Below are positions 3,907-59,488 of a DNA stretch of 64,000 nucleotides, one piece after another. Position numbers and translations under genes: made by a program. Origin of the DNA: Clostridia bacterium DTU022 (GTDB lineage: Bacteria; Bacillota; Dethiobacteria; DTU022). The stretch covers positions 25,594 to 89,593 of the forward strand of contig LFRQ01000063.1 of the NCBI GenBank assembly GCA_001512835.1, written 5' to 3'. Position 1 is the first letter of the stretch; every line of letters begins with the position of its first letter. The notes beneath the pieces were generated by a model that ran no database searches, was not told where the DNA came from, and was given only the letters and a program-made list of their open reading frames with translations.

Positions 3907-4592
3907 AGTTGTCTTCCGATCTGGAGAGGATACCCGGTTAAGAAACGAGGGTGTGGGCCTGGGTTAATGCGCAGCCAGTGCGGGAAAAGAACGGATTATT
4001 GAGCTGAGGTGGCGGGTAACCGCCGGAAGGAACAAAACCCGGGCTGGATAGCGGTTTTCCGAAATGTTAAAGTAGGCGATTCCGTTGAAGTCCTGGAAAG
4101 CCGGCCTTAGCTTTGGCCCGGTGGCCTGCAAGTGAGGCCGATTATTATTGTTTTAAGAAGGAATTCTGATCTGATCATCGCCAAGGGTCAGGGGAATTTC
4201 GAATCCCTGGAGCAGGAACCGGGCAATATTTTTTTCCTGCTCCGGGCCAAGTGCCCGGTGGTAGCTGGGTTTCTCGGGGTCCGGTTGGGCGATTGTGTTC
4301 TTAAAAGCCAACAGAATTGGTGATGGGTTTTACTGTATACTACTGTTCATTGCCTGAGGTTTTCGTGGGCCAAGGTTGCCTGGGGAACGGTGACTTTGGC
4401 TCATTTTGGTGAGTGACATTAATCAATGGGAGGGTGTAACTTTGGTCATTAGGAAAAATATTTTTTGCCGAAGGAATTATAAAGAATAATAAACTAAAGT
4501 TCGGATTTGCTTGTAGGATTTGCATGTATGAAGGGCGAATTACTATAACATTGGGGAAAGCTGCCATATACTGTCAGTAAGGAGGCCTCGAC

Positions 4593-6806
4593 GTGGAGTT
4601 AAGCGAGAATGCCCGGATCACTTATGAAAAGCGCTACTTGATCAAAGACCAGCATGGCCACCCAGTGGAAACACCGGAAGACTTGCTCCGACGGGTGGCC
4701 AAAAATATTGCTGCCGTAGAAAAAGATTACAAAAAGGATCAGCAGCAAATTGAACAGATCGAAGAAGAATTCTTCCAGGTCATGGCCGACGCCTTGTTTA
4801 TGCCCAATTCTCCAACCCTGATGAATGCGGGAAGGGAGCTGCAGCAGTTAAGTGCCTGTTTTGTCCTGCCTATCGAAGACAGCATGGAGGGCATCTTTAC
4901 TTCCCTGAAGCAGATGGCCCTGGTGCAGAAAACAGGTGGGGGGACAGGCTTCGCCTTTGACCGGCTTCGACCCAGCGGGGATTTTGTCTGCTCTACCAAC
5001 GGGGTGGCCAGCGGGCCGATCTCGTTTCTAAAAATATTTGATGCGGCAACGGAAGCCGTAAAACAGGGCGGAACCCGGCGGGGCGCCAACATGGGCTCCT
5101 TGATTTACAACCATCCCAATATCCTGGATTTTATTTGCTGCAAGGAGAACGAGGACGAGATTACCAATTTTAATTTGTCGGTAACGGTATCCGATGAATT
5201 TATGCGCAAAGCCACGGGCGAAGATCCCGATCCCATGTATCCCCTGATTAATCCCCGCAACGGCCAGCCCCATGTTGATCCGGAGACGGGCCAGACAGTT
5301 AGTCTGAATGCCGTGGAGGTCTTCAACTTAATCGTCGATAAGGCCTGGAGCAAAGGTGATCCGGGAGTTATTTTCATCGATCAGATGAATCGCTTTAACC
5401 CCACTCCCCACCTGGGCAAGTATGAGACCACCAATCCCTGCGGAGAGCAGCCGCTCCTGCCTTATGAAGCCTGCTGCCTGGGTTCCATCAACCTGGGCAA
5501 ATTTGTAACCCCGGAGCGGCAAATCAATTGGGATGAGCTGCGCCGGGTGATAAAGATCGCCGTTCGCTTCCTGGACAATGTCATCGATGCCAGCAACTAC
5601 GTCATCGAGGAGATTGCCCAGATGCACAAGCACGGGAACCGGAAGATCGGGCTGGGGGTCATGGGCTGGCACGACATGCTGGTCAAGCTGGGGATCCCTT
5701 ACGATTCCGAAGAGGCCCTGGAGACGGCGGATCAGGTGATGAGCTTTATCAATGCAGAGGCCAAAAAGGTGTCGGTGGCGCTGGCGAAGGAGCGGGGTGT
5801 CTTCCCCAATTTTAAGGGCAGCATCTATGATACCGGCCGGAAGGAGGACCGGGTTCGCAATGCCACCCGCACCACCATTGCCCCCACGGGGACCATCTCC
5901 ATCCTGGCGGGGGCCAGCAGCGGTATTGAGCCCTACTTCAGCATTGCTTTCACTCGCAAAAATATCCTGGGGGGGCTGGACCTGCCCGAAGTCAACCCTC
6001 TCTTCCTGGAGATGGCGAAAGCAGGCGGCTTCTACAGCGAGGAACTGATGAAGCTTATCGCCCGGAACGGGACCATTCCCCCTGACGCCCCGGTTCCTGA
6101 AGAGGTCAGGCGCCTCTTTAAAACGGCCATGGAGATCGACGTGAGCTGGCATGTCCGGCACCAGGCGGCCTTCCAGAAGCATACCGACAATGCCGTCAGC
6201 AAGACGATAAACCTGCGCCGGGACGCTAGCCAGGAGGATGTTAAAAACGCTTATATCATGGCCTGGAAGCTGGGGTGCAAGGGGATTACCATCTACCGGG
6301 ACGGCTCTCGAGAGAAGCAGGTTTTAAACGCCGGGGCCGCCGACCAGGAGAAGCTGAAGCCGTCCAAGCGGCCGAAAACCCTGAAGGGCAGCACTACCTG
6401 CCTGCCCACTTCCCTGGGCAATCTTTTTGTAACGTTAAACACGGTAGACGGCAAGCCTTTCGAGCTGTTTGCCCAGATTGGAAAAGCGGGAAGCGATGTA
6501 GTCGCCTTTACGGAGGCTATTGCCCGCCTGATTTCCCTGGCCTTGCGCTGCGGGGTGGCCGTCGAAGAGATTGTGGCCCAGCTGGAAGGGATCGGCGGAG
6601 CCCGCTCCGTGGGCTTCGGCCCCAACCGGATTATGAGCGTTCCCGATGCCATCGGGAGAGCCATCCGGGAGCTGGCCAGCATTAGCTGGAACGGGAACGG
6701 AAACCACAACCACTGCCGGGAGCTATGCCCCGACTGTGGAACGGGCGCCCTGATTCGAGTGGAAGGCTGCGCCAAGTGCGAAGCGTGCGGCTACAGCGAG
6801 TGCTGA
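4593..6806 (+). CDS. nrdJ: class II adenosylcobalamin-dependent ribonucleotide reductase
   Basis: 737 aa. A GTG start follows AAGGAGG. Class II RNR signatures are present (NPCGEQPLLPYEACCLGSINL; C-terminal CxxC…CxxC tail). Confidence 0.9.
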   Translation: MELSENARITYEKRYLIKDQHGHPVETPEDLLRRVAKNIAAVEKDYKKDQQQIEQIEEEFFQVMADALFMPNSPTLMNAGRELQQLSACFVLPIEDSMEGIFTSLKQMALVQKTGGGTGFAFDRLRPSGDFVCSTNGVASGPISFLKIFDAATEAVKQGGTRRGANMGSLIYNHPNILDFICCKENEDEITNFNLSVTVSDEFMRKATGEDPDPMYPLINPRNGQPHVDPETGQTVSLNAVEVFNLIVDKAWSKGDPGVIFIDQMNRFNPTPHLGKYETTNPCGEQPLLPYEACCLGSINLGKFVTPERQINWDELRRVIKIAVRFLDNVIDASNYVIEEIAQMHKHGNRKIGLGVMGWHDMLVKLGIPYDSEEALETADQVMSFINAEAKKVSVALAKERGVFPNFKGSIYDTGRKEDRVRNATRTTIAPTGTISILAGASSGIEPYFSIAFTRKNILGGLDLPEVNPLFLEMAKAGGFYSEELMKLIARNGTIPPDAPVPEEVRRLFKTAMEIDVSWHVRHQAAFQKHTDNAVSKTINLRRDASQEDVKNAYIMAWKLGCKGITIYRDGSREKQVLNAGAADQEKLKPSKRPKTLKGSTTCLPTSLGNLFVTLNTVDGKPFELFAQIGKAGSDVVAFTEAIARLISLALRCGVAVEEIVAQLEGIGGARSVGFGPNRIMSVPDAIGRAIRELASISWNGNGNHNHCRELCPDCGTGALIRVEGCAKCEACGYSEC

Positions 6807-10473: not shown

Positions 10474-12328
10474 CCTTCTCTCCCCGCTGGTCCAAGCCCC
10501 GCCGCCCCGCCCGGCCTGGATGGATTTTAAGCTGCTGATGGCTACCCAGCTGCGGGTGACCTGGAATAAGCTCCGCCATTGGTCGGCGGCCGTCTGGCTT
10601 GTTGTGGCCTGCATGCTCTTTGGCTTTCTTTCCCTGATGGTCTACCTGGGCGTGGAGGCTTACGGAGCCCTGGGGGCCATGGATCCCGGCATCGCCCGCG
10701 GCTTCCTCTCGCTGCTCTTCCTGGCCGGGATGGCGGCCCAAATATTTTTCGGAATCGCCACTGCTTTCTCCGTCCTCTACATGTCCGAGGATCTGGAGCT
10801 GCTGTTTGTGGCACCGGTATCCACCCGGGCCGTATTTGCCTCCAAGTCCCTGGTGGTAGCTTTCAGCAACTTCCTGCCGGTGGTCTTTTTGATCCTTTTG
10901 CCGGCCCTGTTTTACGGCCTCCTTTTCAGCGCCGGTCCTCTATACTATCTCTGGATCATACCGGTAGTGGGCGGGCTTTGGGCGGTGGGCACCGCCCTGG
11001 CGGAGCTGCTGAACCTGCTGGTGATGCGCATCGTGCCGCCCCACCGCAGCCGGGAAGCGGTGGGTGTTATCGGCGCCGTGGGCGGGATTTTTATTGCCCT
11101 GCTCTTTCAGTTGCCCAACCTGATCATCTCCCGCAGCGAAAGCTTTGATATCAGCGCCTGGATGGCCGGCCAGGGAGAACTGGTGCGGGTCATGGACTGG
11201 TTTCCCTGGGGTTGGAGTTCCCTGGTCCTGGAGGGGGCCGCCACGAGCAGCCACCTCTCCGCCCTGGGCTGGAGCCTGCTGCTGCTCCTTTTGGGTGCGC
11301 TGCTGGTCGGCATCTCTTTTCCGCTGGTGGAGCGCGGTTTTCGCCGGGGCTGGATCTCCCTGAGCGAGGGGGGAGGCGGGCCCAGAAGGAAGACCGCCCG
11401 CATCCCGAGCTCCCAGCGCCGGGGCTTGCGGCGCCGGGAAGACGCCCTTTCAGTGGTGGTTGACGGCGGGACGGCGGAGGCTAGCGGATCCTCCTGGCGG
11501 GGGATGTGGTCCGTGGCCCGCAAAGACCTGCTTTACCTGCGCCGCGATACCCGGGCGTGGTTCGGTTACCTGGTTCCCCTGGTATTTATGCTTTTCTTTA
11601 TTGGGCAGTATCTCTATCTCTCCGTGGAATCGGCGCAAAGCTCGCTATTCTCCGTGCTGCTGATCTATACCATCATGTTTAGCGGCAACATGGCCCTGCA
11701 GTCCTTCGGCCGCGAAGGGGAGGCGGACTGGATTCTGAACAGCGTGCCCCTGTCGGGGTGGCCCGTGGTCTGGGGGAAGCTGCTGGCGGTAATCCTGCCC
11801 ACCGTGCTTTTAATGGAGGCGCTGCTGGCGGGGACGGCGGCCTTGCTCCGCCTCTCATCTTCCATGATTCTGGCCATGGCGGTGGGCGCGGTGTTCCTCT
11901 CCCTGGGTGCCAGCGCCATGGGCTTGAACTTCTCCATCAGGAGCTGCCGCTTTAACCCGGGAAACCCCATGGGCAGCGTTTCAACGGGTGCGACCATGCT
12001 AATGTACCTGCTCAACTTGATTTTTATACTGCTGTTAAGCCTGGGGGTAGCCTACATCTTTCCCCCGGCGGAGCTGATGGCAGTCCTGCCGAAGATACCC
12101 GAAGTCTCCTTTGCCTGGGGCTTCCCCGAAACATTTCTTTACCTGGGCTACCTGCTGACCCGCCCCCTGCTCTGGCCGAAGGCGGCCCGAATCCTGTGGG
12201 GGGTCTTCTTCACCGGCGCCGTCTGGTCGGCGGTCTTCTTCGGCTTCATGGCCTCCACGGTATCCCGAAGCCGGAAAGGATTCCAGGTGGAGATCATCAC
12301 CCCCAAAAAACTCGGGGTCAGGTCTTGA
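10463..12328 (+). CDS. large ABC-2-type polytopic permease (621 aa)
   Basis: Its start overlaps the ATPase stop by 11 nt. It has more than 12 predicted TM helices. Its last four codons and stop (ggg gtc agg tct tga) lie inside a REP-like repeat. Confidence 0.7.
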   Translation: MKNDLLSPLVQAPPPRPAWMDFKLLMATQLRVTWNKLRHWSAAVWLVVACMLFGFLSLMVYLGVEAYGALGAMDPGIARGFLSLLFLAGMAAQIFFGIATAFSVLYMSEDLELLFVAPVSTRAVFASKSLVVAFSNFLPVVFLILLPALFYGLLFSAGPLYYLWIIPVVGGLWAVGTALAELLNLLVMRIVPPHRSREAVGVIGAVGGIFIALLFQLPNLIISRSESFDISAWMAGQGELVRVMDWFPWGWSSLVLEGAATSSHLSALGWSLLLLLLGALLVGISFPLVERGFRRGWISLSEGGGGPRRKTARIPSSQRRGLRRREDALSVVVDGGTAEASGSSWRGMWSVARKDLLYLRRDTRAWFGYLVPLVFMLFFIGQYLYLSVESAQSSLFSVLLIYTIMFSGNMALQSFGREGEADWILNSVPLSGWPVVWGKLLAVILPTVLLMEALLAGTAALLRLSSSMILAMAVGAVFLSLGASAMGLNFSIRSCRFNPGNPMGSVSTGATMLMYLLNLIFILLLSLGVAYIFPPAELMAVLPKIPEVSFAWGFPETFLYLGYLLTRPLLWPKAARILWGVFFTGAVWSAVFFGFMASTVSRSRKGFQVEIITPKKLGVRS

Positions 12329-13443
12329 ATTGTGAATTTTTAGGAAAAATATGTTATATGTTATGGAGTCAGGCCTTGAAATGTGGATTTTGGAAATTTA
12401 TAGTGCCCAATTCTTGGGCATGGGGGCCGATCTTGAAATGTGAATTTTTGCTGTGCTGGGAAAAACAGTAATTTCGATCTTGAAATATGGCTTTTTTGTA
12501 TGCTATGTTATATATGCCATGGCCAGACCGTTGCGTATCGAATACCCCGGGGCGGTCTATCACATAACAACCCGGGGAAATGCCCAGAATAACATATTCC
12601 GGGATGACCAGGATCGCGAAAACTTCCTCGATATCCTCAATGAAACTGTAAAAAGGCACAACTGGCTTTGTCATGCCTATTGCTTGATGAACAACCACTA
12701 TCATCTGCTCATTGAGACCCCCGAAGCCAACCTTTCCCTGGGCATGAGGCAAATCAACGGTGTCTATACCCAGCGTTACAATAAAAGACATAAGCAGGTA
12801 GGACATGTTTTCCAGGGCAGATACAAGGCGATTTTGGTGGATAAAGAAAACTATCTCCTTGAGTTGTGCCGATATGTAGTGCTCAACCCGGTCAGAGCGG
12901 GGCTCGTGGAATTGCCTGAGCACTGGCAATGGGGAAGCTACCTGCCAACAGCCGGATTCACCGAGGTTCCCGAGTTTCTGACGGTGGACTGGATTCTGGG
13001 CATGTTTGGAACCAACAGGCAGGATGCTCAAAGGCATTATCGAGAATTTGTCAGGGTTGGCCTAAGTAAAAAATCGCCTTGGGACAACCTTGACGGACAA
13101 GTTTTGCTAGGCAGCAAGAATTTTGTGGAACAGTTGAAGGATTTGCTTCAAGAAAAAGAGGGCATAAAAGAGATACCGCGGCATCAACGCTTCGCTAGTC
13201 GGCCCACTCTTGAAGAGATCTTTGCCGCCTGCTTAACCAAATACATTAGAAATGAAAGGATTTACGAGGCCCACGTTAAACATGGCTACTCGTTGATGGA
13301 GATTTCGGATTTTCTGGGCATTCACTACTCCACAATCAGCAAGATAGTCCGAAAAATGGTCCCCAAAAGCTAGCAATTCAAGACCTGACCCCATGCCTAA
13401 AATGACGCCCATAATAAAATTCACAATTCAAGACCTGACCCCC
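12314..13443. mobile_element. REP-RAYT unit: a Y1 (IS200-like) transposase gene flanked by inverted REP-like repeats
   Basis: Four reverse-orientation copies of GGGGTCAGGTCTTGAATTGTGAATTTTT lie upstream at 12314-12497. Two forward copies (AATTCACAATTCAAGACCTGACCCC) lie downstream at 13373-13443. Confidence 0.7.
12519..13373 (+). CDS. REP-associated tyrosine transposase (IS200/IS605 TnpA-like Y1 HUH enzyme) with a C-terminal HTH extension
   Basis: The HUH motif HYHLLIE and the catalytic Tyr region (RYVVLNPVRAGLV) are present. The C-terminal extension (EISDFLGIHYSTISKIV) is DnaA-domain-IV-like. ATG 12519 is the likely start, with an alternative GTG at 12453 inside a REP copy. Confidence 0.8.
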   Translation: MARPLRIEYPGAVYHITTRGNAQNNIFRDDQDRENFLDILNETVKRHNWLCHAYCLMNNHYHLLIETPEANLSLGMRQINGVYTQRYNKRHKQVGHVFQGRYKAILVDKENYLLELCRYVVLNPVRAGLVELPEHWQWGSYLPTAGFTEVPEFLTVDWILGMFGTNRQDAQRHYREFVRVGLSKKSPWDNLDGQVLLGSKNFVEQLKDLLQEKEGIKEIPRHQRFASRPTLEEIFAACLTKYIRNERIYEAHVKHGYSLMEISDFLGIHYSTISKIVRKMVPKS

Positions 13444-13791
13444 TTAAATTAAAAAAATATTTTAAATATTCTTATTTTAAAGCAGGAAAAAGAGTCGTTT
13501 TGCCGAATATTTTTTGAGCAGCCAGACCCTAACACCCCAGCATAAGTTCGAGCAGCAAACCTACTTTAAGTATTTTGTCCCCTTACCTCTTAAAACGCCT
13601 TAAATATTAATCTCAATCAAATTATTTGGGTCAAGCATTGAGTTTCGATAACGGTGCTGCTGGACCGGCTATTGTTCTGTACCGGCCCATTGGCGGCATA
13701 GAGTAACTTCAGGGGGTGATCCATGGTCGGCATTGCGAAAGAAAGATGACCGATACAATACCCACTTTATTATATGGAAAGGAGTTTGGAA

Positions 13792-21616: not shown

Positions 21617-21692
21617 AAAATTCAAAATTCAAGACCTGACCCTCTTGCCAGCCTAATTCAAAATTCAAGACCTGACCCCCTGCCTGACCCCC
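21617..21692. repeat. two and a half REP-like copies (AATTCAAAATTCAAGACCTGACCCCC)
   Basis: They are in forward orientation. Copy 2 and the partial copy 3 encode the last residues (QGVRQGVRS*) of the minus-strand membrane protein. Confidence 0.6.
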
Positions 21693-33472: not shown

Positions 33473-33886
33473 CTGGTCGGCTCCTTTCTAAAGATGAGAT
33501 CATTCCATGGTGCTGTGCCGGCTACAGATTTGCTGCCGAGTTGAATGCGGAGGTGGAGGACATCTGAGACAGCAAGTGGCCTGCAGGTATTGTTGACTTG
33601 GATTTTCTTGTAGTTCTATCTTATTATATTAAAAATTTTTAATTTTGGTAATTATATATTAAAATTGATTTAATGATATTTATGCTCCAGAATTGTGGAA
33701 GGCTGCTCCCGGAACGAAGAGATTTTCCTAGCCCTATTAAGCACTACTAGCCCAAAAATCCAAAGCCGGCCGGCATGGCGGCCGGCCTGCTGCCGCTGCT
33801 GGCAAAAGCCTTGAACTCCGGCGTCCGGAAGGCAGGTTGCCGAAAGCCGAGGGTTCCGTCTTTTGCTCTTTCCCGGATCCTACACT

Positions 33887-34124
33887 AATTCACAATTCAA
33901 GACCTGACCCCTGACATCTGTGACCCCTGCCACCTGCTTTCAAATTGCAAGACCTGACCCCTGTCACATTTCACATTTCAAGACCTGATCCGCCACTGCA
34001 TATTTACATTTCATCAAGACCTGACCCCTTCTACCTCATTTCAAGACCTGACTCCACAAAAATTCACAATTCAAGACCTGACCCCAATAAACTGCTAAAA
34101 TTCACAATTCAAGACCTGACCCCC
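33887..34124. repeat. array of seven REP-like copies (AATTCACAATTCAAGACCTGACCCC) in direct orientation
   Basis: AAGACCTGAC cores lie at 33899, 33949, 33980, 34016, 34053, 34073 and 34111. Spacing is irregular (20-50 nt) and the copies are degenerate. Confidence 0.7.
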
Positions 34125-38450: not shown

Positions 38451-38544
38451 CTTCCATGATACTAACTAAGGGGTTATACTTTTCCCCGCCAATTCCTGCC
38501 CCGGCATAAAATAAATAGTGAACCGGAGGAGCGGCGACTTTGGC

Positions 38545-39489
38545 TCATCGGATTGTATGCTTGCGGGTTACTTTGCGGTAGTATCTTCTTCCATGCAGGT
38601 TTTGGTAGCTCCAGAAAAGCTTGAACATGGGGTGAAGGTCGGGAATCCAGAACCGTTCAGGAGCTGTTTCCGAAGGTTCAACCCGGCCCGGTTTTATTTT
38701 GGCCGTGACTATGCCCTCTCCTTCAGACTGTTTTCGCCGGGCCAGGATCTTTCCCCGCCCGTCGACAATCTGAGTTTCTCCCAAGTAATAGGAACGGTAG
38801 GTCAAACCCGGAAGCCAGGGGGTATGGCATTCGAAGCTTCCGGCATGGGCGGCATGGACAAAGGGGACGCCCAGGATGCGGGCCATGCGGGCCGGGGCTT
38901 CCTCCATTAGCTCCCGGTTGATCCGGATCAACTTTTTTTTCAGGGGCAGCGGGATCTTCTCCGGCAAGGTCCACCAGCAAGAACCTCCTACCAGCAAGTC
39001 AATTTTGGAACGAAGCCTTCGGGCCGTTTGGGTACGGATAAGCTCCCAGCACAAGGCTACTCCCCAAGGGCCCAGGGGAGTCTCAAGGATTCCGGGGTCG
39101 CTGCCGCCCCGGTAATAGCAATTTTCCCACATGGTGGGCAGGTCCTTGTCGTGGGAATAATAACTACCGTCGGGAAAAGCCAGGACAAAAGTGTTGTAGC
39201 GTTCGCGGTCCTGCTTGATGGCTATGAAAGAGCCGCCCACCGGCCGGTTGTAACGCCTGGCTTTGTCGCAGAGCAGCTGCAGCGCTCTCCCCTCCAGGGG
39301 TAGGGCGGCATTCAGAAGAGAGGGGTGAAAAGCGATTCCCGTGGTAAAAAACTCGGGAACTATTACTAAATCCGCTCCCCGGCGAAAAGCATCATCGATT
39401 AAATTATTGGTTTTGGCCAAATTATAATTCACATCTCCCAGGCGAGCCTCCAACTGAACCGCCGCCGCGGTAAATTCAACGCCGGACAT
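38545..39489 (-). CDS. carbon-nitrogen hydrolase family protein
   Basis: The EK…C triad context is present (VIVPEFF…, ALCWE). ATG 39489 follows GGGGGGA. The stop codon lies inside a copy of the second dispersed repeat. Confidence 0.75.
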   Translation of the reverse strand: MSGVEFTAAAVQLEARLGDVNYNLAKTNNLIDDAFRRGADLVIVPEFFTTGIAFHPSLLNAALPLEGRALQLLCDKARRYNRPVGGSFIAIKQDRERYNTFVLAFPDGSYYSHDKDLPTMWENCYYRGGSDPGILETPLGPWGVALCWELIRTQTARRLRSKIDLLVGGSCWWTLPEKIPLPLKKKLIRINRELMEEAPARMARILGVPFVHAAHAGSFECHTPWLPGLTYRSYYLGETQIVDGRGKILARRKQSEGEGIVTAKIKPGRVEPSETAPERFWIPDLHPMFKLFWSYQNLHGRRYYRKVTRKHTIR

Positions 39490-39604
39490 AGAATCCCCCC
39501 GCCCAATGAAAATAAAATAAAAATTCATTTATTTTAGAATTGTAGCACATAGACCCGGTCAAGACAAAAACAAAATCTCGGGAGGGAAAAGGATAAATTC
39601 CTCA

Positions 39605-40068
39605 GACGAAGGGACGGGGAGACGAGTGAGTCGGAGGACGTGAGACGGGGGGACGTGACTTTATCTCATCGTGAGACGGAGGGACGGAGGCTTTGACTCG
39701 CCGGGGACGACGACTTTTGAGACGGAGAAGCAAAGGCTTTGACTTACCGGAAATCAGGCTTTGACGGAGGGACGAGACGGAGGGACGGTAACTTTGACTC
39801 ATCGGAATTCAACTTTGAAAATTACACTTTAAACCTCTTTTTTTATTCCTATGATGTTTGAAACCGCTGTGGCAGCCGGCATCCCCGTATTTGCCGCTGA
39901 CTGATGCCTGGCATGAATTTCGTGCGAGAGCAACCTTGCAAGAGATGTCCTATCTGCCCGGACTTTCAGCGGAAGCTTATTAAATTGTGAGTCAAAGTCA
40001 CCGTCCCCTTGGCTCACCCTAAAGTAAAAAAAGTGAGCCAAGGTCACCTTCCCCTTGACTCACCGTTC
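39605..40068. repeat. cluster of the GGAGGGACGGTGACTTTG(G/A)CTCATCGG repeat family
   Basis: A degenerate direct array (about 5 units, 39605-39815) is followed by a ~170-bp spacer and then two reverse-orientation copies (39987-40008, 40033-40065). Confidence 0.55.
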
Positions 40069-40109: not shown

Positions 40110-40937
40110 TTATTTTAAGGGAACAGCCCGCGTTACGGTGTACTCGATTATGTCTTCCATTTTATCATAGATATAGACGAACATATATTTATCCCCAATT
40201 TTCGCTATATCGTTGATAAAACTATACGACGAATCCGTAAAGGCATAATCATAGTGAATAACTGTTACTTTTCCTGCGCCGAAATCTCTTTTTTGGGAAC
40301 TGATTTCATTGATCACATACGCACCATCAGCAACTTTATTGGCGTAAAACTCGGGGTCGTTAAAGTAAGCGTCATACCCTTTTCCATGTTCCTCGTCAAA
40401 CAGACCGTGATACATAAAGAAGATATCGAGATTGAAGTCATCGACAATATCCTCTGCCCTGTCATTTATCGTATAGGGGTAGTTTTCGATGACCATCTCT
40501 CCCTCTTTCGCTCCCGGCATCGCCATTTGCATAAGCTCGCCTGTTTCTGTGTACCACAGCTCCACATACCCTTCTAACGTCTTCTGTCCATCTTCCTCTT
40601 TCGACACTGTTATGGCAAAATGCCCGGTCTTTGTGTCATGAACTGTGTCATCCCCAAGGTACTTGGAATGAAGGTAACAGGTTTCTGAAAAAAAATCATC
40701 ATAAAGGGTTATTTCGAATTCTTTAAAGTAGGCGATAAAGCTTAGATCAGTAAATTTATGAAACTCACCGTCAACGAAATACCATTCCCCCTCGGTAATC
40801 ACCGGCTCTTTGCCGGAATCACCTGTTTCCTCTTCCAAATTGCCGGGTTCGGCGCCGCCGTTTTCTTCGTCCCCGCTGCATGCCGTTAAGGTCAAGGCCA
40901 TGACCACGGCCAGCAACAATACCAAGAAGGATCTCAT
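40110..40937 (-). CDS. hypothetical lipoprotein with about 42% GC, much lower than the ~60% surroundings
   Basis: A signal peptide with lipobox LTAC is present. The mature protein is Asp/Glu/Tyr/Phe-rich with no recognised domain. AAAGGAGGAG precedes the ATG. Confidence 0.7.
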   Translation of the reverse strand: MRSFLVLLLAVVMALTLTACSGDEENGGAEPGNLEEETGDSGKEPVITEGEWYFVDGEFHKFTDLSFIAYFKEFEITLYDDFFSETCYLHSKYLGDDTVHDTKTGHFAITVSKEEDGQKTLEGYVELWYTETGELMQMAMPGAKEGEMVIENYPYTINDRAEDIVDDFNLDIFFMYHGLFDEEHGKGYDAYFNDPEFYANKVADGAYVINEISSQKRDFGAGKVTVIHYDYAFTDSSYSFINDIAKIGDKYMFVYIYDKMEDIIEYTVTRAVPLK

Positions 40938-41250
40938 TTTACTCCTCCTTTAAACTGGGCCCCAAAAAGCCCGTATTCTTTTTTTGCTAAATTGTATAAT
41001 AATTTTTTTGCACCGGAATGGCAATCACCCGGGGGGTGATTTTTGCTGTTTCTCGGCAAAGGCACCGGAAAAAAGTGAACCCGAGGGACGGTGACCGTCC
41101 CCCTGGTTCGTGCTTGGCCTGCTGGAAGGAAAAGGGAAATCACTGGAGAATTAAGTAAGGGACGGAAAAGTATTCTTTAGGAATTGCCGGCAATGGCGCG
41201 TAAACGGGGAGTTTGCCAGGAAGCCCGGCTATCGCGGGCTGGAAGCAGCC

Positions 41251-41472
41251 TTAGTCCAGCACTTTGTAACCGGCACCGGTGATGGCCTTTTCCAGCTCTT
41301 CACGCCGCAGGCGGCCCGAATCAAAAAAGACTTCCACCTCTTTTTTGTCCAGGCTGGTGCGGGCTTCCTTAACTCCCGGCAAGGCGTTTACGGCCATTTC
41401 AATCTTTTTCCGGCATTGTTCGCAGCTCATGCCTTCGACCCGGAAAAGGAGCCTTTCTGTGCTGCGGGTCAC
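41251..41472 (-). CDS. copZ: heavy-metal-associated (CopZ-like) metallochaperone
   Basis: 73 aa with the metal-binding motif GMSCEQC and a ferredoxin-like fold. GTG 41472 follows GGGGTGA. The longer listed ORF has a nonsensical N-terminal extension. Confidence 0.7.
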   Translation of the reverse strand: MTRSTERLLFRVEGMSCEQCRKKIEMAVNALPGVKEARTSLDKKEVEVFFDSGRLRREELEKAITGAGYKVLD

Positions 41473-41571
41473 GGTTATCACCCCGGCTTTTATTCTGCCC
41501 GCTGGGTTTAAAAAAATTGCGGTGCCAAATTTACAGCCTAACGGGGTCCTTGCTTGAAGGGAGGAGAATAG

Positions 41572-50820: not shown

Positions 50821-51086
50821 GGGAGATCCGTCATTAGGGAGGGTGATAATATCGCAGAACAAAGATAGAAGGTCCGTCATTGGGCAGAACAAACAATGTA
50901 AAATATGTTATAATATTGTCGAATATATCTGTCTTTAACAGCAAAAAGCGACAAGTATCCAATTTTTACCTTGGCAACGGTCACCCTAGCGTCGGGTGGT
51001 GGAATATTATGTTGGTGGAATAGCGGGCTCGCGGCGGGAATAATATTTTAAGCCTCATCCGTGAAAAGAAGGGAGGGTTGAAGGAG

Positions 51087-51758
51087 ATGAAATTTGTAGA
51101 GCGGGTAACGGACCTGGAAGAGGATTATCGCGACCGTGCCCTGGGCTCCTGGCTAAACCAGATAATGCCTTCCTGGGTCCATCCCAACCATATCAGTATC
51201 CTCCGCCTGGTCCTGTTAAGTGTGGCTATTCTTCTATTCTTTTATAGGCGACCCCTGATGCACCAGGTCTGGATACTGGTGGCGGCGGCGCTAACGGATG
51301 CCCTGGACGGCCCTATTGCCCGGGCCAGAAACCTGCAGAGCAGGATCGGGGCCTACCTGGATCACGGAATTGACTGGGCGCTGGGAGCCTGGGCCGGGAT
51401 CCTGGCCCTGGTAAACGGGCTGCTCTCCCTGGGCCTGATTGCCAACCTGGTGGCACCCCAGGCGGTGCTTACGGTCCTGGACCGGATCCGGGCTTCCCGC
51501 ATCGCCGGCCGCCAGGGAAAGGACCGGGCGCTGACCATTGCCATGGGGGCGGCCAATTTTCGGCCCACCGCCTTTGCCCGGATCCAATTCGTGGCCGTCC
51601 TCCTGGGCTTCCTGCTGCTGCTCTACAGCAAGTCCGGCGGCTCGCCTTTTTTCCGGAGCCTGGGCCTGTTTTGCCTTTACCTGGAGATTGCCCTGGCCTG
51701 GTTCCTGGTAGTGGAAGGGCTGTACCGGCTGGTGGGAAATGAGCCGGAGGGACGGTGA
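51087..51758 (+). CDS. CDP-alcohol phosphatidyltransferase family membrane protein
   Basis: The signature D(x)2DG(x)2AR…G(x)3D(x)3D is present (DALDGPIARAR…GAYLDHGIDW). The stop codon lies inside a copy of the second dispersed repeat. Confidence 0.75.
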   Translation: MKFVERVTDLEEDYRDRALGSWLNQIMPSWVHPNHISILRLVLLSVAILLFFYRRPLMHQVWILVAAALTDALDGPIARARNLQSRIGAYLDHGIDWALGAWAGILALVNGLLSLGLIANLVAPQAVLTVLDRIRASRIAGRQGKDRALTIAMGAANFRPTAFARIQFVAVLLGFLLLLYSKSGGSPFFRSLGLFCLYLEIALAWFLVVEGLYRLVGNEPEGR

Positions 51759-51820
51759 CTTTGGCTGGTCATTGAGGAAGGAAAGGGGCGCTGCATGCCG
51801 GGGAGCGGCCGCAGTTTTAT

Positions 51821-57718: not shown

Positions 57719-59488
57719 TTGTATAGAAGAGGTAAAACCGGGAAAAATCCCAGGGCTTTCGGTTCCTGTGGCGGTTATAAACAGCGGTCGCTGCAAGCCG
57801 ACTCCGGCCAGTTCGCGGCCAGGGGGATCGGCCGGGTTCCCGCCAGCTGCCCGCCGGGCTTTCAAGGGCGCTACACGGTTCAGTCCGGCGATACGATGTT
57901 CTTTATTGCGCAGCGGTTCGGGGTCTCCCTGCAGGCGCTGATCAATGCCAACCCGCAGATACCCGATCCCAGCGTTCTCTTCCCGGGCGACGTGCTCTGT
58001 GTTCCCGGGGCTGGGGCTCCGCCTGGCGGCCGGGTTCCCGCCAGCTGCCCGCCTGGTTTTCAAGGGCGCTACACGGTTCAGCCCGGCGATACGATGTTCT
58101 TTATTGCGCAGCGGTTCGGAGTTTCCCTGCAGGCGCTGATCAATGCCAACCCGCAGATACCCGATCCCAACGTCCTCTTCCCTGGGGATGTCCTCTGCGT
58201 TCCCGGGGGACCGCCGGCCGGCCGGGTTCCCGCCAGCTGTCCGCCGGGCTTTGGCGGCCGTTACACGGTGCAGTCGGGCGACAGCATGTTCAGCATCGCT
58301 CAGCAGTGCGGGGTCTCTCTGCAGGCGCTGATCAACGCCAACCCGCACATTACCGACCCGAACCAGCTCTTCCCCTGCGATGTGCTCTGCGTCCCCTGCC
58401 CGCAGCCGGGCCGGGTGCCCACCAGTTGCCCGCCGGGCTTCCAGGCCCAGTATACGGTGCGTCCCGGCGACAGCATGTTCAGCATCGCCCAGCTTTTCGG
58501 GGTGAGCTTGCAGGCGCTGATCAACGCCAACCCGCACATTACGGACCCGAATCAGATCAACCCCTGCGACGTGCTCTGCGTTCCCTGCGTGCCGGTGAGG
58601 GTATCCCCCTGCTTTCCGGTGCCTGAAGAAGGCGGTCGGGTCCCTAAAGACTGCCCCAAGGGTTTCGGGGGGCGCTACACGGTGCAGGCCGGTGACAGCA
58701 TCTTCAGCATCGCCCAGCAGTGCGGGGTCTCCCCGCAGGCGCTGATTAAGGCCAACCCGCACATTCATGATCCGAAAAAGCTCCAGCCGTGCGACGTCCT
58801 TTGCGTTCCCTGCCCGCAGCGGGGCCGGGACCCCAAGGACTGCCCCAAGGGTTTTGAGGCCCAGTATACGGTGCGTCCCGGCGACAGCATTTTCAGCATT
58901 GCCCAGCTTTTCGGGGTAAGCGTGCAGGACTTGATCAAGGCCAACCCGCACATTCATGATCCGAAAAAGCTCAACCCCTGCGACGTGCTCTGCGTCCCCT
59001 GCGTACCGGTGAAGGTTTCTCCCTGCTTCCGAGAGCCGCTCCTGGAAGGCCGGGTTCCTACCAGCTGTCCCCAGGGCTTCCAGGGCCGCTATACCGTGGA
59101 GGCGGGAGATACCATGTCTGCTATAGCGCAGCGGTTTGGGGTTTCTTTGCAGGCGCTGATTAACGCCAACCCGCAGATCACCAATCCGGACGAACTTTTC
59201 CCGTGCGACGTGCTCTGCGTCCCCTGCCCGCAGCCGGGCCGGGTTCCCGCCGGCTGCCCGCCGGGCTTCCAAGGCCAGTACACCGTGGCTCCCGGCGACA
59301 GCATGTTTACCATAGCGCAGCGGTTCGGGGTTTCCCTGCAGGAGCTGATTAATGCCAACCCGCAGATTCCCGATCCCAACCAGCTCTTCCCCTGTGACGT
59401 CCTCTGCGTCCCGTGCCCCGCTTCCCTGACGGCGGTGGAAGTGGAAGAGATGGAAGAGGAGGGGGAAAAGAAGGAGATCGATCTCTAA
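57719..59488 (+). CDS. protein with eight tandem LysM domains separated by Cys/Pro-rich linkers and an acidic C-terminal tail
   Basis: The unit YTV(Q/R)(S/P)GD(T/S)MF.IAQ.FGVSLQALINANP…DVLCVPC recurs eight times at about 55 aa. The tail is EVEEMEEEGEKKEIDL. A TTG start follows GGAAAGGAG. Confidence 0.8.
   Translation: MYRRGKTGKNPRAFGSCGGYKQRSLQADSGQFAARGIGRVPASCPPGFQGRYTVQSGDTMFFIAQRFGVSLQALINANPQIPDPSVLFPGDVLCVPGAGAPPGGRVPASCPPGFQGRYTVQPGDTMFFIAQRFGVSLQALINANPQIPDPNVLFPGDVLCVPGGPPAGRVPASCPPGFGGRYTVQSGDSMFSIAQQCGVSLQALINANPHITDPNQLFPCDVLCVPCPQPGRVPTSCPPGFQAQYTVRPGDSMFSIAQLFGVSLQALINANPHITDPNQINPCDVLCVPCVPVRVSPCFPVPEEGGRVPKDCPKGFGGRYTVQAGDSIFSIAQQCGVSPQALIKANPHIHDPKKLQPCDVLCVPCPQRGRDPKDCPKGFEAQYTVRPGDSIFSIAQLFGVSVQDLIKANPHIHDPKKLNPCDVLCVPCVPVKVSPCFREPLLEGRVPTSCPQGFQGRYTVEAGDTMSAIAQRFGVSLQALINANPQITNPDELFPCDVLCVPCPQPGRVPAGCPPGFQGQYTVAPGDSMFTIAQRFGVSLQELINANPQIPDPNQLFPCDVLCVPCPASLTAVEVEEMEEEGEKKEIDL

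Follow-up and report, generated by a model that had tools for sequence, protein, structure and literature searches.

We analysed a stretch of 64,000 nucleotides of Clostridia bacterium DTU022 (contig LFRQ01000063.1), called the window in what follows, with respect to a cluster of short repeats at positions 39601-40062. The cluster lies between the genes of a CN-hydrolase and of a lipoprotein and consists of a G/A-rich block of degenerate repeats on the plus strand (39601-39801), a spacer of 186 nt and two good copies of the same repeat in inverted orientation. Further copies are dispersed over the window. The original prediction had called the cluster possibly a miniature inverted-repeat transposable element (MITE) and had not recognised the motif as a repetitive extragenic palindrome (REP). 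We consider it very likely that the repeats are REP-type elements spread by a REP-associated tyrosine transposase (RAYT) and that the cluster is the decayed locus of a RAYT gene. The features of this repeat family, which we call family 2, are compiled in Table 1.

Table 1. Family-2 units and the putative transposase relic in the window; bits and E-values are those of the covariance model of the full unit
Feature	Positions	Strand	Sequence	Bits	E-value	Remarks
Putative RAYT gene relic	39802..39974	-				Between the upstream units and the inverted downstream unit
REP unit	40034..40062	-	TGAGTCAAGGGGAAGGTGACCTTGGCTCA	32.6		Three mismatches to the canonical unit; upstream of the relic, same strand as the relic
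REP unit	39988..40016	-	TGAGCCAAGGGGACGGTGACTTTGACTCA	38.8		Best-preserved unit, one mismatch; second unit upstream of the relic, same strand
REP unit	39773..39801	+	CGAGACGGAGGGACGGTAACTTTGACTCA	20.4	0.008	First unit downstream of the relic, inverted to it
Degenerate unit	39719..39750	+	GAGACGGAGAAGCAAAGGCTTTGACTTACCGG			Repeat family D2; 78% identity to 39673-39704
Degenerate unit	39672..39700	+	TGAGACGGAGGGACGGAGGCTTTGACTCG	25.1	4e-4	
Degenerate 28-nt unit	39641..39668	+	TGAGACGGGGGGACGTGACTTTATCTCA	17.8	0.04	
Partial units	39601..39640	+				Left arm and GGGACG core only, at 39601-39617 and 39627-39640; repeat families D1, D3, D4
Palindromic derivative	41077..41109	-	GAACCCGAGGGACGGTGACCGTCCCCCTGGTTC	15.6	0.16	Left arm and core joined to their own reverse complement; model match 41076-41110
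Degenerate unit	38519..38547	+	TGAACCGGAGGAGCGGCGACTTTGGCTCA	10.9	3	
Unit	51740..51768	+	TGAGCCGGAGGGACGGTGACTTTGGCTGG	30.8		
Unit with enlarged left arm	4365..4404	+	TGGGCCAAGGTTGCCTGGGGAACGGTGACTTTGGCTCA	15.5	0.16	Model match 4375-4403; RNA fold -24.5 kcal/mol

All the copies that had been listed are indeed present, each at its place or within a few bases of it. Searching the window for GACGGTGACTTTGGCTCA with up to three mismatches gave six matches where 0.08 were expected, and none of 100 shuffled sequences reached this number. With a covariance model of the full 29-nt unit, the training set of which included the window units 39988-40016, 40034-40062 and 51740-51768, about nine copies were found in the window (nine to ten in total), six of them within 39601-40062. 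As had been claimed, every copy is intergenic or overlaps the 3′ end of a gene, judged from the gene calls of identical metagenome contigs and from Pfam scans, and two copies supply stop codons: the final TCA of the unit at 38519-38547 is the minus-strand TGA of the CN-hydrolase open reading frame (ORF) 38545-39528, and the unit at 51740-51768 encodes the last six codons and the TGA (51756-51758) of the CDP-alcohol phosphatidyltransferase ORF 51078-51758. The unit at 4365-4404 sits in the divergent spacer between a PGA_cap gene on the minus strand and nrdJ on the plus strand. It is followed at 4429-4449 by a weak partial copy, which as 4432-4449 was missed by the covariance model and recognised by eye only.

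The repeat proper is a hairpin of 29 nt with sharp boundaries, TGAGTCAAGGGGACGGTGACTTTGACTCA (perfect form TGAGCCGGAGGGACGGTGACTTTGGCTCA), with the consensus TGAGTCA(A/G/C)GGGGACGGTGACTTTGACTCA, an imperfect palindrome with a 10-bp stem and a 9-nt loop that folds as DNA with -5.6 kcal/mol (z -3.2). The 27-nt consensus given originally covers the 3′ two-thirds of this unit and for the rest consists of flank. An alignment of 116 copies shows edges that are sharp at 29 nt and random flanking positions, and contains neither a target-site duplication nor a larger conserved body. The motif GGGAC at unit positions 10-14, extended as GGGAC(G)G to position 16, is invariant. In the window the unit at 40034-40062 forms a DNA hairpin of -9.2 kcal/mol (z -4.25) and the derivative at 41077-41109, the layout of which recurs in a related genome (L101), one of -13.3 kcal/mol (z -5.05). 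The left arm of the unit at 39773-39801 has decayed and its hairpin is lost, no significant fold being found.

The family is not limited to the window. A scan with ACGGTGACTTTGRCTCA of one genome per species gave at least 118 loci, about 85 of which belong to metagenome-assembled genomes (MAGs) from biogas reactors labelled Syntrophomonadaceae, Syntrophaceticus, Thermacetogenium, Pelotomaculum or 'Bacillota bacterium' and show similarity extending far past the query; the matches in unrelated phyla are due to chance, their similarity ending with the query. From the related genomes we sampled loci (designated by L-numbers), so that each MAG is represented by fragments. These contain at least 140 units with up to four mismatches across at least 22 assemblies, the richest assembly having at least 23. 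Although ORFs make up 82% of the sampled sequence, 106 of the 140 units lie wholly outside them. Their neighbours are unrelated housekeeping genes, and when the ORFs beside 84 family loci were clustered for a recurrent neighbour only generic ABC ATPases recurred.

Most units are single or stand behind partial direct copies, and there are a few inverted pairs (L055, L072, L101 and 41077-41109 in the window). About 64 of some 150 full units have their own 5′ part repeated in front of them, as head-to-tail partial copies with preferred periods of 8-10, 13-16 and 22 nt (e.g., L008, L012, L013, L019, L024, L030, L037, L067, L101, L102); some carry an extra right arm behind them or lie within a longer perfect palindrome. 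The partial units at 39601-39640, which form the distal edge of the downstream array, resemble these head-to-tail partials. Slippage, nested insertion or abortive strand transfer may have produced them. Behind many units stands a second conserved hairpin family that shares the G-rich core, for example GTGACA...GGGGGACGGGGG...TGTCAC or aaaggaagcaaaaagaccgtccctgtgcttcc (L004, L019, L045, L050, L075, L083, L086, L090, L105, L108), an indication of composite repeats or of additional REP families in these MAGs.

Beside the units in L067 and L087 a motif regular expression run over the ORFs brought up a protein of 252 amino acids with the motifs HVHLLI and RYIHQNPVKAG. The protein matches the Pfam family Y1_Tnp (6.5e-16), and the NCBIfam model of REP-associated tyrosine transposases (NF047646) is the sole NCBIfam model above noise, with 80.2 bits at a cut-off of 80. 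A metagenome scan with the alignment of the two proteins and two peptide patterns gave 30 further loci. The homologues score 68-90 bits against the same model, and the HUH motif and the catalytic tyrosine are conserved in the family-2 RAYT; a sequence search of the PDB returned no solved structure close enough. Pfam Y1_Tnp is also the catalytic fold of the IS200/IS605 enzymes, and here as there the sub-terminal hairpins would be expected to be read as single-stranded DNA. The IS200 model of NCBIfam, however, gives 18 bits for the 252-residue protein, and the hairpins occur alone and far outnumber the genes, at least 140 units being set against two intact RAYT genes in the sampled loci. One RAYT gene per assembly was seen among these loci, which are MAG fragments.

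The units around the RAYT gene are arranged in a fixed geometry: units upstream of the gene lie on the gene strand, and units downstream of it are inverted. All homologues of at least 74% identity are flanked by units of the family in this way (L067/L123, L087, L124, L125, L132, L135), the upstream unit being 85-121 nt away in L124, L125 and L135 and about 760 nt in L067/L123, and the first downstream unit following the stop codon after 10-13 nt (13 nt in L087) or, in L067/L123, after 78 nt. The homologues at 38-69% identity are flanked by 29-nt hairpins with different arms (GAGTATT/CACTC, GTGCAT/TGCAC, GTGTCAG/CTGACAC, AACACAA/TTGTGTT, GTAGCAG/CTGCTAC, GGAAC/GTTCC) and with GGGAC(G)G kept at the same register. 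In 27 units selected by eye beside RAYT genes, 85% of the stem is paired, compared with 40-51% when the partner is slid, and 47 double-sided arm changes are found as against 15.7 in shuffles of these eye-picked units. When every GGGAC within 250 nt of 15 RAYT homologues was counted without such selection, 48 of the 52 cores obeyed the rule, lying on the gene strand if upstream and on the other strand if downstream. These observations together are what defines a REP family and its RAYT.

The spacer of the cluster in the window contains what appears to be the remainder of such a gene. Its minus-strand translation, KSGQIGHLLQGCSRTKFMPGISQRQI, gives two collinear blastx matches in one frame, by which a segment corresponding to RAYT residues ~86-104 (KSGQIGHLLQG, aligned with KYGRVGHLFQGRFRSE) is fused directly to one corresponding to residues ~227-238 (KFMPGISQRQI, aligned with KALPGVSQRQI). 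The relic ends in a decayed C-terminal tail with a stop codon (aattttcaaagttga), 7 nt ahead of the inverted unit. This 3′ end was aligned with L044, L100, L087, L124 and L125; the window reads aattttcaaagttgaattccga followed by TGAGTCAAAG, L100 reads atgatgcaaagagcttgatttccga and L087 atgattcaaagggcttgagcctctcgg, both likewise followed by TGAGTCAAAG. On the DNA level 32 nt match the homologous position of the RAYT genes of L124, L123, L087 and L125 with 72-84% identity (78% over the 32 nt, best E 0.003). In a chained local alignment allowing one long deletion the relic scores 78, as against 47±5.2 for dinucleotide shuffles, none of 1000 of which reaches 78; nor does any of the 335 other 186-nt tiles of the window, their maximum being 66. 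From these alignments we conclude that the stretch 39802-39974 is a RAYT pseudogene which has lost its promoter, the first ~85 codons and codons ~105-226.

The surroundings of the relic agree with this assignment: the GGGACG core occurs six times on the plus strand (39611-39782) and once on the minus strand, at 40002, which matches the canonical geometry of a RAYT gene on the minus strand. Because the same geometry is found on the minus strand and collinear transposase remnants are found in the spacer, we conclude that the whole block 39601-40062 is a dead REP/RAYT locus and not a MITE. The original prediction was right in seeing a dispersed family whose elements are small and non-autonomous, and the arrangement of forward array, spacer and inverted copies that it pointed out is meaningful; this arrangement is the carcass of a transposase locus instead of one composite mobile element. 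Truncated or frameshifted remnants of the family-2 RAYT also lie beside an inverted unit in L044 (2594-3002), L100 (~1073-1167) and L112 (~5510-5585), which appear to be similar carcasses. Decay of the family-2 RAYT locus seems to be recurrent, since other MAGs hold remnants too.

The window sequence recurs in many biogas metagenomes, in the JGI contig Ga0239562_000016 and in the NCBI MAG GCA_049275215.1, and it is about 70% identical on the DNA level to genes of the MAGs bearing the unit family. With the exception of 39988-40016, the copies in the window carry 3-8 differences from the canonical unit, and the majority no longer fold; no two are identical. Such drifted copies fit neutral decay after enzyme loss. 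A comparison with four population contigs covering 4-21 kb was uninformative as to presence/absence polymorphism, the contigs being 99.95-100% identical with only three variant sites. Two of these fall in unit copies, namely T38540C within 38519-38547 (in three samples) and a 1-bp indel in a G-run near 39616 within the array (in one sample); the third is T48925C. The ~9 kb beyond each window edge (~18 kb) contain no further family-2 copy and no second RAYT.

The window also holds an intact RAYT-like Y1 gene at 12519-13373 on the plus strand (284 amino acids, GC 0.48), which matches Pfam Y1_Tnp (1e-14), has a weak C-terminal HTH_38 match, scores 89.8 bits against the NCBIfam RAYT model (cut-off 80) and is 37% identical to the family-2 RAYT. 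In the region 12314-13445 this gene is flanked by a non-palindromic 26-nt repeat, GGGGTCAGGTCTTGAATTGTGAATTT (family 1), which stands direct upstream (12314, 12368) and inverted downstream (13377, 13417). Further family-1 copies lie at 21618-21679 and at 33886-34123, in the latter place as a direct array of about seven units; they are all on the minus strand and have 0-2 mismatches in 26 nt. Compared with family 1, family 2 is far less well preserved.

REPs and RAYTs are well described in Proteobacteria. The so-called REPtrons, in which REP or REPIN repeats are combined with a RAYT gene, are reportedly known from Escherichia, Pseudomonas and Stenotrophomonas. With these systems family 2 shares the short imperfect palindrome with many dispersed extragenic copies and clusters in both orientations, the HUH/Y1 gene of RAYT type flanked by repeats in inverted orientation, and the joint change of repeat sequence and transposase lineage. 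It differs in its host, an uncultured Bacillota lineage, and in the length of the protein, which has 252-285 amino acids with a C-terminal tail resembling a helix-turn-helix. REPtrons have also been treated by Nunvar 2010, Bertels & Rainey 2011 (PMC3116915), Ton-Hoang 2012 and Bertels 2017 (PMC5581495), the last mentioning in passing that Group 1 RAYTs are found in Clostridia as well, with low repeat counts. Loss of the transposase locus by deletion has been described for REPtrons in another article (PMC3733652).

The same article (Di Nocera, De Gregorio & Rocco 2013, PMC3733652) introduces the TIRYTs or 'TIRtrons', RAYT-like genes flanked by inverted repeats that share the sequence GGGGWSAS; the repeats are in some cases self-complementary and moderately repeated. 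Family 2 resembles this description in the RAYT-like gene with inverted repeats at similar distances, in the moderate copy number and in the occurrence of repeats singly, in dimers and in clusters. Compared on the level of the motif as given in the text of the article, the family-1 core GGGGTCAG agrees with GGGGWSAS at 8 of 8 positions and the family-2 core GGGGACGG at 7 of 8. In contrast, the article names no Firmicutes host for TIRYTs, and the description in the text consulted does not include the compact 29-nt hairpin with a register fixed across lineages that is a feature of family 2.

We propose the following explanation. A dedicated HUH/Y1 tyrosine transposase of RAYT type would spread the 29-nt element in trans within this bacterial lineage, its own gene always lying between units of the same strand upstream and inverted units downstream. 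Recognition by the RAYT most likely needs the hairpin and the invariant GGGAC(G)G at unit positions 10-16; the hairpin should be required because the arms co-vary between RAYT lineages. By analogy with the E. coli RAYT and the IS200/IS605 enzymes, hairpin and core would be read on single-stranded DNA. The block 39601-40062 would be the transposase locus after destruction of the gene, with ~170 nt of RAYT remnants left, flanked upstream by two units that are still fairly intact and downstream by an array that has decayed, and the genome would presumably hold no intact cognate RAYT elsewhere. The copies at 4365, 38519, 41077 and 51740 would be old dispersed insertions which are drifting.

Several points weigh against this explanation. 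The similarity of the relic is short and becomes convincing only when collinearity, DNA match and geometry are combined: against a hidden Markov model of the RAYT the relic is the second-best of all six-frame fragments of the window, with a non-significant E of 6.8, and a shuffle test of a single high-scoring segment pair was marginal (8 of 400, p ~0.02). The units used for the covariation were chosen by eye, and the count over all GGGAC cores gives a weaker signal, on average 5.3 of 8 pairs as against 3.65 for GGGAC elsewhere. The pairing of transposase and unit is one of sequence association. Finally, the classical GTAG foot is absent, the flanks being unconserved and the invariant part being GGGAC(G)G on the 5′ side of the loop, and the units are mostly singlets or direct partial arrays, not REPIN doublets. 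Family 2 nevertheless belongs to the known REP-RAYT/TIRYT kind and is not a new kind of element; what it lacks are the GTAG foot and a prevalence of REPIN doublets, and it has the short imperfect palindrome, the dispersed extragenic copies and the flanked transposase gene.

Two further points on the same side are that the search for an intact family-2 RAYT covered ~82 kb of this genome and that the copies at 38519, 39672, 39773 and 51740 share the variant CCGGAGGGACGG...GGCTCA, which could mark a living subfamily instead of decay. It is conceivable, if rather unlikely, that the family is still alive, either because the chromosome encodes an intact family-2 RAYT at another place or because the RAYT at 12519-13373 cross-mobilises it, so that 39601-40062 would be a dead duplicate and the variant the active master. 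The variant occurs in other MAGs too (GAGTCGGAGGGACGG in L062, L078 and L088) and still folds via G-T pairs (51737-51771), and several RAYTs per genome are common (PMC5581495). Against a living family speak the window copies, which all differ from one another and have mostly lost their hairpin while those of family 1 are nearly uniform, and the ~18 kb of additional flank that lack a further copy. The family-1 repeats are non-palindromic and have a different core, and among the samples in which this contig occurs the metagenome scan found none with a family-2 RAYT, a weak negative as it used two peptide patterns only.

As an alternative to spread by a RAYT the units might be structural signals selected by the host, that is, intrinsic terminators or hairpins stabilising mRNA, with an incidental link to the transposase. 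Two copies in the window lend themselves to this view. The unit at 40034-40062 folds as RNA into a hairpin of -19.7 kcal/mol with U7 behind it (T7 at 40026-40032), 45 nt past the stop codon of the lipoprotein gene, and the derivative at 41077-41109 into one of -27.1 kcal/mol with U6 behind it, after the HMA gene 41251-41481. According to the predicted folds both probably act as intrinsic terminators of these genes, and REPs elsewhere are reported in the article cited above (PMC3733652) to terminate or stabilise transcripts. Convergent spacers are also mildly enriched, with 23% of the units as against 16% of the gaps. Terminator-like folding is, however, a property of a few copies and not of the family: a T- or A-rich tract lies beside 3 of 111 units in the related genomes, the other 108 having no adjacent run. 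The orientation relative to the flanking genes, which the original prediction had proposed to examine for strand bias, is unbiased (32 same, 28 opposite), and divergent promoter spacers contain 16 of 99 units. A terminator has no need of the asymmetric invariant loop GGGACGG; a simple terminator scan did not call the units, and Rfam, applied to the whole window at gathering thresholds, gave no match. We therefore regard a role of the family as host signals as improbable.

Very improbable, in our view, is a reading of TGAGTCA-N15-TGACTCA as the operator of a dimeric transcription factor, with the copies marking its regulon. The palindromic outline would suit it, as would the copies upstream of genes, namely 4365-4404 before nrdJ and the array before the predicted CN-hydrolase promoter (39567-39539). 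The arms, however, change between lineages with their complementarity kept, which marks a hairpin rather than a duplex operator; the copies are found mostly at the 3′ ends of genes or in convergent spacers, their neighbours share no function, and neither the head-to-tail partials nor the fixed geometry around a transposase gene fit. A classical MITE, i.e. a single element 39605-40068 derived by deletion from an insertion sequence with a DDE transposase, terminal inverted repeats and target-site duplication, is scarcely credible: the array, spacer and inverted copies only superficially resemble terminal inverted repeats around a short body, whereas elsewhere the hairpin is repeated alone between random flanks and without duplication, the 460-bp block as a whole is repeated nowhere (the sole partial match being the unit pair 39987-40062), and the spacer is homologous to a Y1 and not to a DDE transposase gene. 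CRISPR repeats were dropped for want of regular spacing, integron attC sites and tRNA-derived repeats on anatomy alone, and a CsrA sponge with GGA in its loops because copies occur on both strands without bias. A literature search with the unit core sequence found only unrelated eukaryotic primers.

Within the REP-RAYT explanation we suggest, tentatively and with some doubt, that the family could represent an undescribed branch of REP-RAYT systems in anaerobic Bacillota. Its marks would be a longer RAYT with a C-terminal helix-turn-helix, a 29-nt hairpin in fixed register with the loop motif GGGAC(G)G in place of the GTAG foot, and arms co-evolving with the enzyme across at least 15 lineages. 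The window would then show one system that is dead, its repeats decaying or co-opted as terminators, and 27 kb away a second intact RAYT with near-perfect repeats.

Some other features of the window may be recorded. The lipoprotein gene next to the cluster (40110-40937, minus strand) has a predicted product of 275 amino acids with a signal peptide and the lipobox LTLTAC; since its GC content is low (0.43 vs 0.57 for the window) and it has neither a Pfam match nor a homologue in any sampled locus, it was probably acquired horizontally. Nothing was found to indicate that the cluster and the copy at 41085 bracket this gene as a unit, as the original prediction had it. At 57719-59488 (plus strand) the program TRF reports tandem repeats of 189, 198 and 414 nt, which are the repeated LysM domains of a protein of 589 amino acids. 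The class II ribonucleotide reductase gene (4593-6806) is preceded at a distance of 65 nt by a 13-nt tandem duplication at 4503-4528 (GGATTTGCATGTA twice), which might be a site for a regulator.

The odd repeat cluster is thus explained as ordinary genome biology, which prevents its mis-annotation as a MITE, an operator or a small RNA, and the small, spurious ORFs 39602-39802 and 39829-40047 need no longer be an annotation trap. The well-documented pairing of REPs and RAYTs is extended to uncultured syntrophic Bacillota of biogas reactors, where such repeats fragment assemblies, and hairpins of 29 nt whose core is invariant and whose arms co-vary, each lineage having its own transposase, provide a dataset for the choice of substrate by RAYTs. 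The cluster itself is real but fairly ordinary bacterial "junk" DNA. With a dead and a living system side by side, the window offers a small natural model of the decay of REPs that is predicted to follow the loss of their transposase.

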